IMG/VR virus record: IMGVR_UViG_3300014204_013734
Span: 192,001-256,000 of that record
Length of the DNA stretch: 64,000 nt
Reading direction: 5' to 3' (one strand)
DNA from: a virus
Lineage: Duplodnaviria; Caudoviricetes
The position numbers and the translations under genes were made by a program. This document shows, piece by piece, positions 618-7,809 of this stretch (its first letter is position 1; each line of letters starts with the position of its first letter). Below the pieces are notes generated by a model, which saw only the letters and a program-made list of their open reading frames with translations, was not told where the DNA came from and searched no databases.

Positions 618-1197
618 AGCCCGTATCATATGTTTGGTGCCGTCCATCCGTATTCCGGATCTTGATTTGACTTTGGCTAAGGACCAGGAAGCTTACGTGG
701 ACGAAAAGGCTGCCAAAGGTTCCCTTGATTTGGATGTAGCCCGCCGGGCCGGCGGAGTCCAATTGCATTGGGTAGAACGTAGCCGAATCGTTAAGTCCCC
801 CGACCCTCCGGTGCCGCCTGTACGTGTGGATCCGCCAAAACGAGGATTCCAGTCGTTTCCAGCAGAACGGTTGGAATTGGATTTGGATGACTTGGCCAGT
901 CGTGTTGCTGAACGGATGGTTTCCAAGACTAGGGATTCAGAAACGAACAGCAAGATAGACGCCCTCCTTGAACTGGTTGGAAATCTTCGTCAAGAAATTG
1001 CAGGGGCTTCTGTTGCATCGGGTCAGTCCCGTGGTAGGGTAACAGTTGAGGATGACACCCCTGTGTTCATCCCTGGCAAGTTGGTGAACGAAGATTTGGG
1101 GACCGTGGAAGTGAAGACAGACGATTCAGATTCCGGTGATGGTTTGGATAAGGCGGCGGAAGTCTTGAAAGCATTACGGAAACGCAAGAAGAAATGA
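610..1197 (+). CDS. hypothetical phage protein (helical/coiled-coil, basic C-terminal tail), coupled to the actin-like gene
   Basis: GAGGAGG RBS at 594-600 before in-frame GTG at 610; overlaps the upstream stop. Confidence 0.7.
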   Translation: MVEARIICLVPSIRIPDLDLTLAKDQEAYVDEKAAKGSLDLDVARRAGGVQLHWVERSRIVKSPDPPVPPVRVDPPKRGFQSFPAERLELDLDDLASRVAERMVSKTRDSETNSKIDALLELVGNLRQEIAGASVASGQSRGRVTVEDDTPVFIPGKLVNEDLGTVEVKTDDSDSGDGLDKAAEVLKALRKRKKK

Positions 1198-1208
1198 GGA
1201 GAACCGCC

Positions 1209-2237
1209 ATGGCGGACAAGACAGAAAAATCAAATAATTCCAATAGGTTGCCGGGCAGTGGTTTAGATTGTGGCACTATGAATATTGTTTCAGCCAGACG
1301 AGGCCCTTCTGGTATCATTACGAAACGGATGCGGGACGTGTTCCTAGATCTTCCCTTAAGTGCGAAGAAGATGTTGAAGTTATCCAACGCCAGTTTCGTG
1401 GAACGGCCAGACGACGTCCTCATCCTGGGCGATGCGGCCCTGGAAATGGCCAACGTGTTTGGGAAGGATCCTCGCCGTCCATTGGCCCAGGGTATTATTT
1501 CTCCCAGTGAATCGGAAAGTTTGGAAGTTTTGGGGTTGCTCGTCAAGAGTGTTCTTGGTGACCCTATTGTTCCGGGGGAACATTGTTACTTTTCTGTTCC
1601 TGCTATGCCGGTTGACAGGACAGATAAGGATGTCATTTACCATCGTGGGGTGTTTGAACGCATTGTCAAGGAATGTGGGTTCACGCCACATTCCGGCAAC
1701 GAGGCGATGGCCATCATCTATTCGCAGACGGCGGAAGAAGGCTTTTCCGGGATTGCCCTTTCCTTCGGAAGCGGTATGACAAATGTCGCACTTTCGATAA
1801 ATACCGTAGAAGGGTTGACTTTTTCGGTCGCCCGGGGCGGGGATTGGATTGATGCCGGCGCGGCGCATGCCATTGGGCAGACGCCTGCCCGCATCTGTGC
1901 CCTGAAGGAACGCGGGTTTGACCTCATAAGCCCTGTCGGCAGGGAACAGGAAGCCTTGGCTTTCTATTACAAGGAAGCCATCAACTATGCTTTTGACCAG
2001 ATCGAAGCCCAGTTCAAGGCGGTCAAGGACAAGTTCTCCCTTGCGAAGCCTATCCCGATGATCGTGTCGGGCGGGACTTCCCTTGCCGGTGGCTTCATGG
2101 ATTTCTTCACGGGAGTTTTTGAAGCCCGTCGGAAGAAGTTCCCCATTTCCATTTCGGTCATCCGTCAGGCATCTGACCCCTTGAATGCCGTGGCTCATGG
2201 TTTGCTGGTGCAGGCGATGCAAGAGCACGAACAATAG
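1209..2237 (+). CDS. actin-fold ATPase (MreB/FtsA/ParM-like)
   Basis: Phosphate-1 GLDCGTMNI, connect-1 NEAMAII, phosphate-2 SFGSGMTNV followed by RGGDWID, adenosine motif VSGGTSLAGG, connect-2 DPLNAVAHG; RBS GAGGAG before ATG 1209. Confidence 0.85.
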   Translation: MADKTEKSNNSNRLPGSGLDCGTMNIVSARRGPSGIITKRMRDVFLDLPLSAKKMLKLSNASFVERPDDVLILGDAALEMANVFGKDPRRPLAQGIISPSESESLEVLGLLVKSVLGDPIVPGEHCYFSVPAMPVDRTDKDVIYHRGVFERIVKECGFTPHSGNEAMAIIYSQTAEEGFSGIALSFGSGMTNVALSINTVEGLTFSVARGGDWIDAGAAHAIGQTPARICALKERGFDLISPVGREQEALAFYYKEAINYAFDQIEAQFKAVKDKFSLAKPIPMIVSGGTSLAGGFMDFFTGVFEARRKKFPISISVIRQASDPLNAVAHGLLVQAMQEHEQ

Positions 2238-2269
2238 TTTCAGTTCTTGGCGGAATCCGTGGTGGATTT

Positions 2270-2278
2270 TGTTAAGTT
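2270..2278 (+). promoter_or_regulatory. possible extended -10 sigma70-type promoter for the 2308 operon
   Basis: TGT-TAAGTT (TGn + TAnnnT) in the intergenic gap, about 30 nt upstream of ATG 2308. Confidence 0.3.
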
Positions 2279-2307
2279 TGATAGACAGACAAAGGAAGGC
2301 AAGGATC

Positions 2308-2712
2308 ATGAAAACGTTTGACGAAATCTACAAAGACACGGATTCATTGGACGACAAGGCCCTCTTGGATTCCTTGCGGGAAGAATCCAGGTGCAAGCTG
2401 GCGTCGGAAAAGTTTCTCCACCAATTCGGTGATCTGTTTGCTGCTGTTGAACACAACAATGTTCGGGTGTCTGATGTCGTCACGTCTGTGACCATTTGGA
2501 CGGACTTGCGGAAAAACTATCCAGAATACGTGGATCCTGAAACGGAACTGTCCGTTCTGAAGGATGGCAGGATGGGAGGTTTGTGGGGCGCCAATGTGTG
2601 GGTTGACAAGACGGTGCCTCCCAACCATATCCGCGTCTATGGAGAAGATGACCCGGCGTTCGCATCCGAATGGCCCAAGTTCGCATCTGCAGCGGAAAAG
2701 TTGTGGACCTGA
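2308..2712 (+). CDS. small protein resembling a fragment (A-domain region) of an HK97-fold major capsid protein
   Basis: AAGGAAGG-type RBS before ATG 2308; segment FAAVEHNNVRVSDVV...WTDLRK...VDPETELSVLKDGRMGGLWGANVWVDKTVPP shows the G-x-L-W-G-x-x-V-x-V-x-x-x-VP pattern of HK97-type capsids; only 134 aa. Confidence 0.5.
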   Translation: MKTFDEIYKDTDSLDDKALLDSLREESRCKLASEKFLHQFGDLFAAVEHNNVRVSDVVTSVTIWTDLRKNYPEYVDPETELSVLKDGRMGGLWGANVWVDKTVPPNHIRVYGEDDPAFASEWPKFASAAEKLWT

Positions 2713-2761
2713 ACTTCTACGGCAAAAGCCATTTGACGACCGAACAAAGGAGTTTTTGAAT

Positions 2762-3655
2762 ATGACCGAAAAGAAGACATTTCAACCATTTCCTGTTCAG
2801 CGGGTCATCATCAAGGCTTTTCGTGGCATTCAATTGGATTCCGTTGCCAAGTTCAGCATCCTGTCGGATTGGAAAAAAGGGAAGAAGGAAACCGTTACTG
2901 AGACGTCCCTCCTTCATTACCTTCACGATGAAGGCATGTGCAACACTTGGAAAATTGAAGTTGGAAGACCCTTCCAACAACTCGTTCTTTGTGCTGGACG
3001 TCGGGCTGGCAAGAGCTTTGTGGGGCACCGTCTCGTGGCGGATGCTTTCAACGAATTACGGTCTACGGATGATTTCCGAGTCGGTTTGGGTCTTGGGGAA
3101 GAAGAAGACCTGAACATGGCGGTTGTCGGCGCATGCAAGGAAATGACAGATTATTCCATGAATGCTATTTGGGATAATTTGAAGGGGGATGATTCGTTAG
3201 CACGGGTTGTCGGACGGATTTCAGATCCTAAACGCCGTTGTCGCATTGTAGCCATGTCGGCTTCCGGCAAGGCGTTGCACGGCAGTAAGAATTATTTCAC
3301 CTTTCTGGATGGAACCATACACGGCCCGAACCCCGATAAGGTTTACAGGTTGGCTCTGATGTCCGGTAAGGGCTTTAAGGGGTCTGCGGAAAGTAAAGTT
3401 GTGTCTGTATTTTCTCCGCCGATCATGCAGAAAGGTGCTGATTTCGCTTACAGGTTTTGGTTGTCGGCCCACCAGGATGCCGGGAATACCCTTTGTTTTC
3501 GCATCCCTTCTTGGGTGATGAACCCGACGATTTCCCGGGATGTGTGGAAGCAGGAAGCAGATCGTATGGACGAAGCCGTATTCCGGGCGGAATACGGGGC
3601 TGAATTTGTTAGTGCTGATGGAAAGCCGTGGAAAAATACAAAGGACCTTTACTAA
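2762..3655 (+). CDS. truncated terminase large subunit-like protein (ATPase domain only, degenerate Walker B)
   Basis: RBS AAGGAG; Walker A LVLCAGRRAGKS; Walker B-like YFTFLDG lacks the catalytic Glu; C-terminal PSWVMNPTI...FRAEYGAEF is typical of the TerL ATPase-nuclease linker; no RNase H-like nuclease follows. Confidence 0.7.
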   Translation: MTEKKTFQPFPVQRVIIKAFRGIQLDSVAKFSILSDWKKGKKETVTETSLLHYLHDEGMCNTWKIEVGRPFQQLVLCAGRRAGKSFVGHRLVADAFNELRSTDDFRVGLGLGEEEDLNMAVVGACKEMTDYSMNAIWDNLKGDDSLARVVGRISDPKRRCRIVAMSASGKALHGSKNYFTFLDGTIHGPNPDKVYRLALMSGKGFKGSAESKVVSVFSPPIMQKGADFAYRFWLSAHQDAGNTLCFRIPSWVMNPTISRDVWKQEADRMDEAVFRAEYGAEFVSADGKPWKNTKDLY

Positions 3656-3674
3656 GCGTTGACGGGAGGATTCT

Positions 3675-5009
3675 ATGCTTCATCAATGGGCTGGATGGGA
3701 AGTAGATCTACTGTCGGCGACACGCCCTTGGCTTCCTGCATCCGATCTTATTAGTTTGTTCAAGGCGTGCGGATCCGTCAGATCCAAAGATTCTTTGAAC
3801 AACAAGGCAACTGCTCTTGGTATTGACATACGGGGGCACAATGCCGAAAAGGCACTGTCAGCGGTCATCAAGTCAAAAATCCCACAAAACCTGAAACAAT
3901 TGGCGGTTACGTTCCTTGGAGGGGTTCCTATCGATACGTCGGAAATCGGGGATCCTTCAAAGGTAGCTGACCGAGTGGAAATTGACAAACTTCGGGGTAG
4001 GGTCCGGTCCCTTGAAAAGGACTTGGAAGAAGGCACCTATTTCGGCAAAATCGTGAAGGATCTGTTTTCCAAACCGGTTTCGGTTCCGGATTGGGTTCTG
4101 GCAGCCCCCAAGAAGAAATCAGGGAAGGTAGCGACCCCCCAACTGCTCATCAGTGATTGGCATTATGGGGAAGTCGTGGACCCGAATGCCATTTGGGGAG
4201 TCAACGAATACAACCCAGAAATAGCTGTCCGGCGCCTGCACCGTGTAGCACAAGCTGCTACCTCCATGTTCAAGGAATACTTGTCGGGATGGCGGTATGA
4301 CGGCATCATAGTCCCCTTGGCAGGGGACATGATTTCCGGCAAGATTCATGCAGAGTTGGAACGTACAAACGCCGAACAGTTGACTGATTCCGTTTTGTCC
4401 TGGTCAGCCGAATTGGCGCGTATGCTTACTGTCCTGGCGGATGCCTTCGGCAAAGTTTACGTTCCAGCGGTAGTTGGAAATCATGGCAGGGAAGATCTTA
4501 AACCTTCCATGAAGCAGGCCGTGGCCCGGAACTACGATTATCTGTTGTACCGACTTGTGAAACGGGAAGTGCATAATGATCCCCGTATTACGGTGGATGT
4601 GTCCCTTTCTACTTCACGTAGGTACACGGTTTACGGGCAGGGATACCACTTGATGCACGGTGACGATTTCAAGGGTGGTAGCGGTATTGCCGGTTCCTGG
4701 TCCCCTTTGAAACTCGGAGAACACCGGACGACGCAACAGTTCATGGATTTGGGACATGATTTTGAGTCTGGGTGTTTGGTTCTTGGGCACTTCCATCGTC
4801 GGATGACCGATATTGGTCTGATTGTCAACGGGTCAGGGATCGGTTACAATGAATTTGCATTCCGGAAACATTACAAATTCGAAAGACCCCAGCAGGCGGC
4901 GTGGATCACAACCCCGGAAAATGGCCAGACTTTGGAATTCCCTGTATTCTGTGATTCCCACGAGGAATACGAAGCCCAGATAGTTGCCGCCAGACTCTTG
5001 AACAAGTGA
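3675..5009 (+). CDS. calcineurin-like metallophosphoesterase with N-terminal helical/coiled-coil extension
   Basis: All five motifs present: SDWHYGE, GDMISG, GNHG, HGD, GHFH; RBS GGGAGG. Confidence 0.85.
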   Translation: MLHQWAGWEVDLLSATRPWLPASDLISLFKACGSVRSKDSLNNKATALGIDIRGHNAEKALSAVIKSKIPQNLKQLAVTFLGGVPIDTSEIGDPSKVADRVEIDKLRGRVRSLEKDLEEGTYFGKIVKDLFSKPVSVPDWVLAAPKKKSGKVATPQLLISDWHYGEVVDPNAIWGVNEYNPEIAVRRLHRVAQAATSMFKEYLSGWRYDGIIVPLAGDMISGKIHAELERTNAEQLTDSVLSWSAELARMLTVLADAFGKVYVPAVVGNHGREDLKPSMKQAVARNYDYLLYRLVKREVHNDPRITVDVSLSTSRRYTVYGQGYHLMHGDDFKGGSGIAGSWSPLKLGEHRTTQQFMDLGHDFESGCLVLGHFHRRMTDIGLIVNGSGIGYNEFAFRKHYKFERPQQAAWITTPENGQTLEFPVFCDSHEEYEAQIVAARLLNK

Positions 5010-5038
5010 AGGAGGTAGATTACAAATAATTTCCTTAT

Positions 5039-5255
5039 CGTTCCCCCACTTATGTGGGGTGATCTTGGAACCCCTTTGGTGAGTATTCCCCACATCAGTG
5101 GGGATGAACCGCGGCGTGGATTACGTTCCCTACACACGTGGGGATGGCCCGTGCTCGGCGTTTGTTCGTTCCTAATTCCCCACGTTAGTGGGGGTGACCC
5201 GTGGGACATCACCTTAGATTTTGATGTTGTTCCCCACATTAGTGGGCGTTGACTG
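5039..5255 (+). CRISPR. degenerate type I-E-like CRISPR mini-array (5 repeats, 4 short spacers), no cas genes in window
   Basis: Repeats at 5039-~5065, 5083-5111 (GTATTCCCCACATCAGTGGGGATGAACCG), 5123-5151, 5173-5201 and 5227-5255; 29-nt unit with CCCCAC-N4-GTGGGG hairpin and GRTGRNCCG 3' end like I-E repeats; spacers ~17, 11, 21 and 25 nt. Confidence 0.85.
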
Positions 5256-5271
5256 ACCAGAGGGGTTCCAA

Positions 5272-6471
5272 TTGTACTTTCAGTTAACCGAACAATTGAA
5301 ACGACGGTTCATTTTAGAACTCCGTCGTTTCTGGTCTACACATCCCCACTACTCCGACATTGTTGACAAAATTCAAGGGAAGTTTTCCTTCAAGGAACGT
5401 CCTTCCTACGGCATTATTGTCAAGACTTCCGGAGGTAACCGGGTTGACCTTTCCGCCGACAACTATATGGCTATGACGATCAGTTACGTCCACTTGGCGC
5501 GTGCAAGAAACAATCCTGGGGTTGCCATAGAATGGGTTCGTGAAGATTCTGTTGCCATTCAAAATAATGGAGGTATTTTTCCGTCTCTGCCTGGTGTTTA
5601 CTGGATTGAATTGACGGAGGATACTGAATTTTACGTTGACCCTCTCCTGAACATTGTCGGGGAAATCCCAACCCCTATTGACCTTACGACGTTTCAGTTG
5701 CAGCACGCCCCTGTTGCTGGGACTGTCCGTTTGTATGAGATGCCTGCCCGTTATATGTTGGTAGAGGGACAGAACTACACACTTTCCCTTGGACCTGATG
5801 GGAAACCGAATGGTGAAATCATTCTGACGACTCCGTTGACCAGAGACCGCTTTCTGGTAGCGGATTATCGTTTTCCAGCCCCCTCCCGTGGACCTTTCGT
5901 TTTGAACCCCGGTTATGCTGATAACAAAGCAATCCCGGGTGTGATTTTGGCATTTGGTAGGAGGAATCAGAAGGGTGATAAACTTGTTGTCATCGTTGAC
6001 GAAATTCGTCGTCCAGTTGCGTTGGAGTATGGTGGAAAATGGGACGTCACCTTAGATTTTGATGTCATTGCCAGAGATGTTCATGCACAGCAGGAAATTG
6101 CAGATGCAACCGTCGTCTGGATTTGGGCTGTCCTTCGGTCTTGGATGTCCCAGGAAGGTTTGGAAATTACCGACCTGTCCATGGGGGGTGAATCGGAGGA
6201 AACCTACGATGAAGCTGGTGACGACTATTTCTACAACTCTTCGTTTTCCTTGACCGTTCAGACTGATTGGCGCCTCCAGGTTCCTTTGAGTGCCTTTATC
6301 CGGCAAGTTACTCCTGAAACCAGCATTTATGCCCGGGGATTGGCTTCTATCCCGGATGCCCAGTTGGCTTTAACCCAACAGGGGATTAGGGCGGCTACCG
6401 ACTTGGGTTTGGAACTGGTTTCCGACCCCTTCTTTTCCGGGCGTATTGCCACATACGAACAAGTCCGGTGA
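5272..6471 (+). CDS. tail completion/neck-like virion structural protein
   Basis: 399 aa, TTG start after GAGGGG RBS; beta-rich, C-terminal DFDVIARD...QQEIAD...SFSLTVQTDW resembles tail-terminator folds; located upstream of sheath. Confidence 0.55.
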   Translation: MYFQLTEQLKRRFILELRRFWSTHPHYSDIVDKIQGKFSFKERPSYGIIVKTSGGNRVDLSADNYMAMTISYVHLARARNNPGVAIEWVREDSVAIQNNGGIFPSLPGVYWIELTEDTEFYVDPLLNIVGEIPTPIDLTTFQLQHAPVAGTVRLYEMPARYMLVEGQNYTLSLGPDGKPNGEIILTTPLTRDRFLVADYRFPAPSRGPFVLNPGYADNKAIPGVILAFGRRNQKGDKLVVIVDEIRRPVALEYGGKWDVTLDFDVIARDVHAQQEIADATVVWIWAVLRSWMSQEGLEITDLSMGGESEETYDEAGDDYFYNSSFSLTVQTDWRLQVPLSAFIRQVTPETSIYARGLASIPDAQLALTQQGIRAATDLGLELVSDPFFSGRIATYEQVR

Positions 6472-6993: not shown

Positions 6994-7809
6994 GTGCGGA
7001 CCTATTTGATTTACAAGGCAACTTCTCCTTCCGGGAAGATTTACGTAGGGCTTACCAGCCAAAAAATGAAGGTGAGAAAACACCAACATTATTCGTCAGC
7101 TAAGCGGTTTCAAAGTTCTGGGGCTTTCCAGAAGGCCCTTCTCAAGTACAGGACTGCTATGACGTGGGACATCTTGGAATCTGGACTTCCTGACTTTGAA
7201 GCTGCCGCTGCCAGGGAACGGTATTACATAGCCTTGTTTGGAGCAAATATCTCAGGTAAAGGCTACAACCACACGGAAGGAGGGGGTCAAGGAAGACCCT
7301 TGAATTCCAAGAATTCCAAATCTAATATTGATCCGGTCTTGCGTTCTGATGGGATTGTTTTTCCTTCTGCACGGGCTGCTGCTTTGGCTATGGGAGCAAA
7401 GTGTGATTGGGCTGTTGGAAAGGCCATCAAGAATAAAGGCACCTGTGGTGGATTTTCTTTTCGGCGGATATCCGTTGAAGAATATGAATCTTTGAAAGAA
7501 ACATGTACCCCTAAGAACGTTCCCATTGTTCATTGGACTTATGCTAGGACTTTTTCTGATGCCGTCAGACGGAAGATATCGGAAACAAAAAAAGGGAAAC
7601 CTTTAAAGCACACCAGCAAACCTGTTAGGCGTTCGGATGGGGTTTTGTTTCCGTCCATAAAAGAAGCAGCGATTTCGGTTGGTACGACATCAGACGCTTT
7701 ACGCTATGCTGCACAAAGAAACCAACTTTGTCATGGGTTTTTATTTGAGATTTTTCCGAAAGGAATTTCGGTGGTCGCCCTATTGAAACCCCTTGGTGGA
7801 CAGGATTGA
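6994..7809 (+). CDS. free-standing GIY-YIG homing endonuclease (Seg-like) with NUMOD-type DNA-binding repeats
   Basis: LIYKATSPSGKIYVGLT (GIY-YIG), R..QH, ERYYI, GYN; duplicated PV.RSDG..FPS...AA..G modules; RRKISETKKG NUMOD3-like. Confidence 0.85.
   Translation: MRTYLIYKATSPSGKIYVGLTSQKMKVRKHQHYSSAKRFQSSGAFQKALLKYRTAMTWDILESGLPDFEAAAARERYYIALFGANISGKGYNHTEGGGQGRPLNSKNSKSNIDPVLRSDGIVFPSARAAALAMGAKCDWAVGKAIKNKGTCGGFSFRRISVEEYESLKETCTPKNVPIVHWTYARTFSDAVRRKISETKKGKPLKHTSKPVRRSDGVLFPSIKEAAISVGTTSDALRYAAQRNQLCHGFLFEIFPKGISVVALLKPLGGQD

Follow-up and report, generated by a model that had tools for sequence, protein, structure and literature searches.

In the gap between two of its genes, a huge phage carries a Cas-less array of crRNA-like units derived from type I-E CRISPR, whose shortened spacers copy those same two genes. 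This identity is secure. As to function, we infer that the phage most likely supplies short guide-like RNAs to the CRISPR proteins of its host, and that these RNAs serve to discriminate self from relatives, to jam the host proteins, or both.

A phage-borne array of diverged type I-E-like repeats

The array occupies 218 nt (positions 5038-5255) of the window, the 64,000-nt stretch of phage DNA that was analysed. It comprises five diverged type I-E-like repeats, all on the plus strand, which is the strand of essentially all genes there:

5038..5067, plus strand: R1, degenerate; its stem contains an extra C and its handle departs from the consensus
5083..5111, plus strand: R2, the best I-E-like copy, handle ATGAACCG
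5123..5151, plus strand: R3, with a C-to-U stem change that still allows a G.U pair, handle ATGGCCCG
5173..5201, plus strand: R4, handle GTGACCCG
5227..5255, plus strand: R5, the terminal copy, with its bottom pair lost, a weakened stem and a degenerate handle

An earlier note on this DNA had drawn attention to five diverged repeats with start-to-start periods of 44, 40, 50 and 54 nt, as against 61 nt in genuine arrays, and the observation is real. Among 2335 distances measured in genomic arrays and viral loci that share the repeat class of R2, a distance of 61 nt accounts for 1868, and just 13 do not exceed 58 nt; because the reference arrays are so overwhelmingly of 61 nt, four consecutive periods of 40-54 nt are not ordinary variation. 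Nor is the array an assembly artefact, since its sequence is identical to the letter across five independent assemblies (contigs of four sequencing runs and a fifth JGI contig). The four runs come from three studies, of a landfill in 2018 and of groundwater in 2022, and their contigs contain no array variants.

The units, of 29-30 nt, consist of 2-3 variable bases, TTCCCC-AC, a 4-nt loop, GT-GGGG and an 8-nt tail, and the expected 6-7-bp hairpin is obtained by folding in every copy. They thus have the repeat of a canonical I-E array (28-29 nt, with a 7-bp/4-nt hairpin and an 8-nt 3' handle). Long arrays of 61-nt period with the pattern of R2, ending ATGAACCG, occur at over 120 genomic loci across many phyla, and Cas6e (PF08798) is encoded in 5/5 tested genomes with arrays of this class. 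Other canonical features are absent: the period is not ~61 nt, the repeats are far from near-identical (pairwise identity 62-79%, or differences at 6-11 of 29 positions), and there is neither an adjacent cas operon nor a leader, the stop codon of gene A lying only 28 nt from R1 with no leader-sized region upstream. The 381,280-bp virus record (72% complete) contains no homologue of Cas6e, Cas7e or Cas1, and no Rfam family matches the array. What remains is a Cas-less, intergenic array in a virus genome, as viral mini-arrays are.

The loops read TTAT, ATCA, ACAC, GTTA and ATTA from R1 to R5. These loops, and a stem largely kept with one change each in R3 and R5, had been listed before and are borne out, the extra C of R1 being an addition. 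Across R2-R4, 11 of 29 positions vary and only two of these fall within the 14 stem positions, both keeping a wobble pair (P=0.014), which upholds the claim that structure is preferentially retained. Over all eight copies of the repeat in the genome (three more are described below), 92.9% of stem cells are paired and no compensatory double change occurs, so that the structural evidence is one of conservation alone; a genome-wide scan for I-E-like hairpins with other stems yielded none beyond these eight. Of the handles, those of R2-R4, each followed by a real spacer, stay close to the consensus xTGxxCCG, and those of R1 and R5 are degenerate. Transcription may start at a promoter-like site, which is a consensus match only, or the array may just as well be read through from gene A:

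4822..4850, plus strand: sigma-70-like promoter match (TTGTCA-17-TACAAT, 10/12), inside the 3' part of gene A and 190 nt 5' of R1

Shortened spacers copy the flanking genes

With 29-nt repeats, the spacers measure 15 nt (sp1), 11 nt (sp2), 21 nt (sp3) and 25 nt (sp4). The last three have copies in the genes on either side:

3675..5009, plus strand: gene A, a predicted exonuclease of 444 aa (phrog_284, E 2e-38), carrying the phage's own copies of sp2 and sp3
5272..6471, plus strand: gene B, 399 aa, a clade-conserved core gene, carrying the phage's own copy of sp4
5112..5122, plus strand: sp2, 11 nt; homology to gene A extends to 5124
5152..5172, plus strand: sp3, 21 nt
5202..5226, plus strand: sp4, 25 nt; gene B family homology may reach a few bases into R5
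4896..4909, plus strand: own copy of sp2 in gene A, 10/11 within the spacer (4897-4907) and 13/14 with flanks; AGG at 4894-4896
4358..4378, minus strand: own copy of sp3 in gene A, 19/21; flank AAC
6040..6064, plus strand: own copy of sp4 in gene B, 24/25; flank AAA (a lysine codon)

Significance was taken as the number of shuffles, out of 3000, that equalled the match within ±2 kb. None did so for sp3 or sp4 (0/3000 each) and 28/3000 did for sp1, whose match is the reverse complement of 5254-5268. The match of sp2 is marginal (177/3000, reaching 3/3000 only with flanking bases added post hoc), and six equally good matches to this spacer exist genome-wide. For each of sp2-sp4, the stretch homologous to its source opens at spacer position 1, or with the repeat's final G, and breaks off at the following repeat, so we regard all three as true spacers minus their PAM-distal part. 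The proposal that matches begin at the 3' end of the repeat with the seed side kept therefore stands for sp2-sp4; it fails for sp1, which is an arm of an RNA helix (see below). By estimate, the chance that random deletions of 7, 11 and ~20 nt would keep the PAM-proximal end in 3/3 spacers is ~0.006. To judge from a 77% relative, sp4 could have come from a 32-nt spacer by the loss of just 7 nt where spacer and repeat meet. A stepping of spacer lengths by 6 nt (26/20/14) is at odds with the observed 25/21/11.

The differences between spacers and own copies are few. The single difference in sp2 is a synonymous third-codon change (I->I), and its own copy has the perfect 10-nt start next to AGG that had been pointed out before. 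Both differences in sp3 are likewise synonymous third-codon changes (R->R, E->E), one of them at spacer position 3, in the seed; the difference in sp4 changes V to I at spacer position 7, also in the seed. The synonymous share is thus 3/4, a weak excess (about P=0.04-0.1 on 4-6 sites). The flanks of the own copies, AGG, AAC and AAA, define no single PAM. Loops differ at 9/12 pairwise positions, as against 4/57 for spacers and their sources: either selection holds the spacers, or the repeats diversified, for example against recombination between direct repeats.

In E. coli, I-E Cascade still interferes with spacers of more than 20 nt and still primes with spacers of at least 14 nt (PMC5159557). 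This bears on the earlier note's proposal that short guides mean a non-cutting role: the guides are indeed shortened, but sp3 (21 nt) and sp4 (25 nt) could license cutting of perfect alleles, given that guides of this length interfere in E. coli. These two, the only spacers long enough to interfere, are exactly the two whose own copies are mismatched in the seed.

A variable slot next to a core gene with a hidden ribosome-binding site

Gene A and the array lie within a slot that varies between related phages. Gene A has 361 homologues, the closest at 63%, and no relatives in the PDB. Gene B has 826, on contigs of up to 536 kb, and no match in Pfam, PHROG or the PDB. Comparing window 1194-6471 with three related loci (L241-L243) gives the clade synteny: Volactin, 0-6 variable small genes, gene B, a Zn-ribbon gene and a giant protein of ~1770 aa. 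Between the Zn-ribbon gene and the giant gene (here of 1765 aa), at window 6994-7809, the phage has a GIY-YIG homing-endonuclease-like gene. It is missing there in L241-L243, which marks the neighbourhood as a target of selfish insertions.

The match of sp1, rejected as a spacer/protospacer pair, is one arm of a helix that covers the ribosome-binding site of gene B:

5065..5084, plus strand: 5' arm of the helix ('sp1'), an anti-Shine-Dalgarno sequence that pairs with 5252-5271
5252..5271, plus strand: 3' arm of the helix, including the Shine-Dalgarno sequence of gene B, AGAGGGG (5259-5265)

The 20-bp helix has 18 Watson-Crick pairs and one G.U pair, with a duplex energy of -33.3 kcal/mol, and AGAGGGG lies 6 nt upstream of the TTG start of gene B; homologues whose alignments include residue 1 fix this start at 5272. 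The target that the earlier note had placed at 5254 is explained by this helix. At the equivalent site, the relatives L009 (736-773) and L010 (3769-3809) have a 14-bp hairpin with a 10-13-nt loop, and minimum-energy folds also put the Shine-Dalgarno sequence in a hairpin in L241 and L243 (L243:2440-2470). Since 'sp1' is the 5' arm and the hairpin of relatives is small-looped, R2-R5 fill the 167-nt loop of a hairpin that hides a ribosome-binding site. That such hairpins occur in several relatives suggests conserved translational control of the core gene B. Another hairpin, at 5299-5332, lies within the conserved N-terminus of gene B, which rules out a role as terminator of the array.

Allele discrimination as the favoured reading

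We tentatively favour, as plausible rather than probable, that this crRNA-like array uses host Cascade to discriminate the alleles of related phages and at the same time competes for Cas proteins. The array region would be transcribed together with gene A, and host Cas6e would cut after each hairpin to release RNAs of 40, 50 and 54 nt, each with an 8-nt handle, a short guide and a hairpin. Loaded into undersized host Cascade complexes, these guides would stand for alternative alleles of genes A and B. The phage's own copies would escape through seed or flank differences (sp3, sp4) or through a guide that is too short (sp2), while a close relative that co-infects the cell and has the matching alleles would face binding, priming or cleavage. 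A secondary effect, possibly even the principal one, would be that the five hairpins and the three solitary repeats elsewhere in the genome compete with host crRNAs for Cas6e, Cas5 and Cas7.

This reading is favoured because it explains together the retained seeds, the handles of R2-R4, the conservation of the spacers and the seed mismatches of the own copies. By analogy, the inter-virus conflict logic of mini-arrays would apply, with targets tightly linked to the array, and the mini-arrays of SPV1 and SPV2, compared below, are a direct precedent; a second mini-array in the same genome likewise matches an adjacent gene. Several findings speak against it: sp2, at 11 nt, is below the 14-nt priming limit of E. 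coli and its self-match is marginal, the repeats are non-identical, unlike those of the interference-competent mini-arrays described so far, the flanks of the own copies have no single PAM, and no perfectly matching relative was found. Spacers acquired from self, followed by mutation on both sides that ended self-targeting, would give the same pattern.

The search for a host and for matching alleles covered several collections. The four metagenomes that hold the phage also contain high-depth 31-mers ~90% identical to R2, with 22-35-nt inserts between them; these are genuine I-E arrays of co-occurring organisms. No host emerged: the repeat class is spread over many phyla, and of 2335 spacers in the reference arrays of this class, none matches the phage beyond 15-mers expected by chance. 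In 1.7 Mb of array-bearing loci from organisms other than the host, the spacers have chance-level matches only. Relatives with alleles that match the spacers perfectly are absent from every collection searched; the GenBank phage collection holds no relative, and scans of IMG/VR and metagenomes with gene A returned distant homologues only. In the 63% homologue of gene A (L107), which has a different context, the sites for sp2 and sp3 have diverged further than those of the phage itself; relatives of gene B at 42-77% (L009-L011, L237-L239) match sp4 more poorly than the phage's own copy does; and degenerate-codon patterns for alleles matching sp3 or sp4 hit unrelated DNA only.

Solitary repeats and further mini-arrays

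Three further I-E-like repeats are found in the same genome, all solitary, on the plus strand and in or beside the tRNA cluster:

G000:C1:48959-48987 (L005:1498-1526), plus strand: solitary I-E-like repeat
G000:C1:53397-53425 (L001:1498-1526), plus strand: solitary I-E-like repeat
G000:C1:56250-56278 (L002:1498-1526), plus strand: solitary I-E-like repeat

One of them lies between tRNA-Arg(ACG) and tRNA-Gly(UCC) and is hence probably part of a tRNA polycistron. None is followed by downstream sequence that matches the phage itself, and none overlaps an Rfam match. Having no neighbouring repeat within ~100 bp, they show the defining feature of solitary-repeat RNA anti-CRISPRs (Racr), which the five-repeat array does not, and we consider all three candidate RNA anti-CRISPRs. 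Nearby, tRNA-His is followed directly by a match to an HDV-like ribozyme (RF02682) at L005:1824-1909, whose 35.5 bits fall short of the gathering score.

In a relative with a 75% identical gene B (L237), a solitary CRISPR-type repeat at 1707-1739, ~45 nt upstream of gene B, takes the same slot as the array. Its hairpin is followed by GTGGATTGAAAC, a 3' end as in known CRISPR repeats such as those of Xanthomonas citri, and we take it to be I-C-like.

The phage genome has a second Cas-less mini-array outside the window, at G000:C1:350950-351220. It is made of a different, 35-39-nt hairpin repeat ending ACACGTTGAA, preceded by a TTGACA promoter-like site and followed by a terminator; its spacer 2 matches the adjacent gene (351533) at 27/31. 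A 20-23-nt motif (CTTCACCATACGTT.GGCAC) occurs three times, at 132-171-nt spacing, in G000:C1:356094-356700, likewise outside the window, and may represent either a further repeat unit or a group of regulatory sites. A distant relative, the 322-kb phage G002, carries a Cas-less I-E-like mini-array of three repeats with two full-length 32-nt spacers at another locus:

G002:C1:250520-250690 (L231:1430-1590), minus strand: mini-array with diverged stems, including a swapped upper stem

It has no self-match within ±30 kb. On an unrelated 86-kb viral contig (L077, minus strand, 850-940) we observed a two-repeat I-E mini-array whose 25-nt spacer matches a motif repeated several times nearby in the contig's own DNA, with a further solitary repeat 1.8 kb away.

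Alternative explanations

The array could be a pure RNA anti-CRISPR decoy, in effect a tandem Racr, in which hairpins and handles trap Cas6e, Cas5e and Cas7 and the spacers are leftovers shortened against self-targeting. We consider this unlikely as the whole account, if a serious contender. The three solitary repeats on the same strand, with no self-matching sequence downstream, argue for it, as do the solitary repeat in the same slot of the 75% gene B relative and the preference with which stems are kept over other positions; degenerate repeats and shortened spacers are moreover typical of phage Cracr and Racr elements. A role in titrating Cas proteins, which the earlier note had also raised, would fit the solitary copies of the array's repeat elsewhere in the genome. 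The difficulty is what trapping leaves unexplained: the PAM-proximal end kept in every spacer, spacers that are 93% identical to their source despite diverged loops, and seed mismatches in the two long spacers. Described Racrs, besides, are solitary repeats.

An inert relic is improbable. On this explanation a once-canonical mini-array, possibly with self-acquired spacers, suffered junction deletions and escape mutations and has no function now. The divergence of the repeats at 6-11 of 29 positions, the degeneracy of R1 and R5, the shortening of every spacer and the mere 28 nt upstream, with no leader, all speak for it, as does the mini-array of G002 with its two full-length 32-nt spacers. Yet 5/5 hairpins survive even though every spacer has lost 7-21 nt, variation avoids the stem (P=0.014), and the handles of R2-R4 stay near consensus. 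The array is also unchanged between samples taken four years apart, a weak argument given that its flanks are equally unchanged.

A more elaborate version of targeting, gene-drive-like homing, strikes us as distinctly improbable. Here the array and its linked, resistant flanking alleles would form one cassette: in a mixed infection the guides would send Cascade-Cas3 to the sensitive alleles that flank the empty site in a rival, and repair templated by the carrier would then copy the array together with its flanks into the rival. If true, it would explain why targets adjoin the array, as they do twice in this genome and in the viruses SPV1 and SPV2.

Self-regulation, in which the short guides bring host Cascade to the phage's own flanking genes for repression without cutting, is very unlikely. 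Short, partially matching guides do repress in CreR, CreA and Cracr systems, and the sp2 copy in gene A has its perfect 10-nt start and AGG flank. However, both significant matches (sp3 and sp4) are mismatched in the seed and flanked by AAC or AAA, the match of sp2 is near chance, and the supposed target at 5254 is an arm of the RNA helix. The three remaining sites lie within ORFs, 0.2-0.8 kb from the array, and not at promoters. The idea that the array tunes the transcription of its neighbours was part of the earlier note and is poorly supported by these observations.

The helix over the ribosome-binding site opens another, highly unlikely possibility: a Cas6e-responsive translational switch, in which cutting by Cas6e and assembly of Cascade on the 5' arm would alter access to the ribosome-binding site of gene B. 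A 20-bp helix of -33 kcal/mol covering the Shine-Dalgarno sequence, a 167-nt loop full of Cas6e-type hairpins and the small-loop hairpin at the same place in several relatives speak for it. But the 20-bp duplex would probably remain paired in trans after cutting, there is no known reason for the core gene B to respond to CRISPR, and the loop may be just a tolerant insertion site.

Finally, a non-CRISPR origin, in which a 66-codon ORF (5052-5252) specifies a repetitive peptide, or the hairpins serve as generic terminators or as REP-like elements, is scarcely credible: one open frame does span the array and R2, R4 and R5 share it, but R1 and R3 fall outside that frame, the start codon ATG sits within the R1 hairpin and has no ribosome-binding site, the ORF has no Pfam or PHROG match, and genuine I-E arrays share the repeat down to its 8-nt tail.

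Comparison with known systems

The closest described elements are Cracr arrays (Liu et al., bioRxiv 10.1101/2024.10.29.618823), which are also Cas-less and borne by mobile elements, with multiple degenerate repeat-like units and shortened spacers; the type I-E example that has been characterised carries psi-spacers of 24 and 21 nt. Degenerate units and shortened spacers on a mobile element are what we find in the phage. Cracr RNAs are matured by the Cas6e of the host and compete with its crRNAs, as those of the phage array would. Their spacers mimic host CreR or CreA and match promoters of host cas or toxin genes, mimicry being recognised by at least nine PAM-proximal matches to a host cas or creT promoter (Cracr/crlRNA), whereas those of the phage are copies of its own flanking genes. 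The described I-E examples have 2-3 spacers; the phage array, in addition, sits inside the loop of a helix that hides a ribosome-binding site.

The mini-arrays of SPV1 and SPV2 (Medvedeva et al. 2019, PMC6858448) resemble it in another way. They too are Cas-less and intergenic, their targets lie close to the array, with spacers that correspond to nearby virus genes, and the carrier's own copies are point-mutated. Unlike the phage array, they have full-length spacers, a leader and host-like repeats; its own spacers span 11-25 nt, its repeats have individually diverged, the arrays that co-occur with it are only ~90% like R2, and the searches gave no matching rival. With Racrs (Camara-Wilpert et al. 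2023, PMC10651486) the array shares repeat mimics, carried by a phage, that would bind Cas6 and Cas7. Racrs, however, are solitary by definition, in contrast to a five-repeat array with recognisable spacers. Shortened spacers give smaller Cascade complexes in E. coli (Kuznedelov et al. 2016, PMC5159557), but those constructs are engineered and the phage array is a natural element.

Shortened-spacer phage arrays, solitary-repeat RNA anti-CRISPRs and virus-borne mini-arrays have thus all been described already. What is new is the combination: shortened guides drawn from the carrier's own flanks, diverged repeats, a position in the loop of a ribosome-binding-site hairpin, and a slot that holds different classes of repeat mimic in related phages. 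The array thereby mixes features of three described kinds of element: one jams Cas proteins with solitary repeats, another silences host cas genes by means of short-guide arrays, and the third directs full-length mini-arrays against rival viruses. If its guides are inactive, it would clearly exemplify a natural tandem RNA decoy carried by a huge phage. If they are active, it would be a natural in vivo test of type I-E guides of 11-25 nt, and could explain why the targets of viral mini-arrays adjoin the array.
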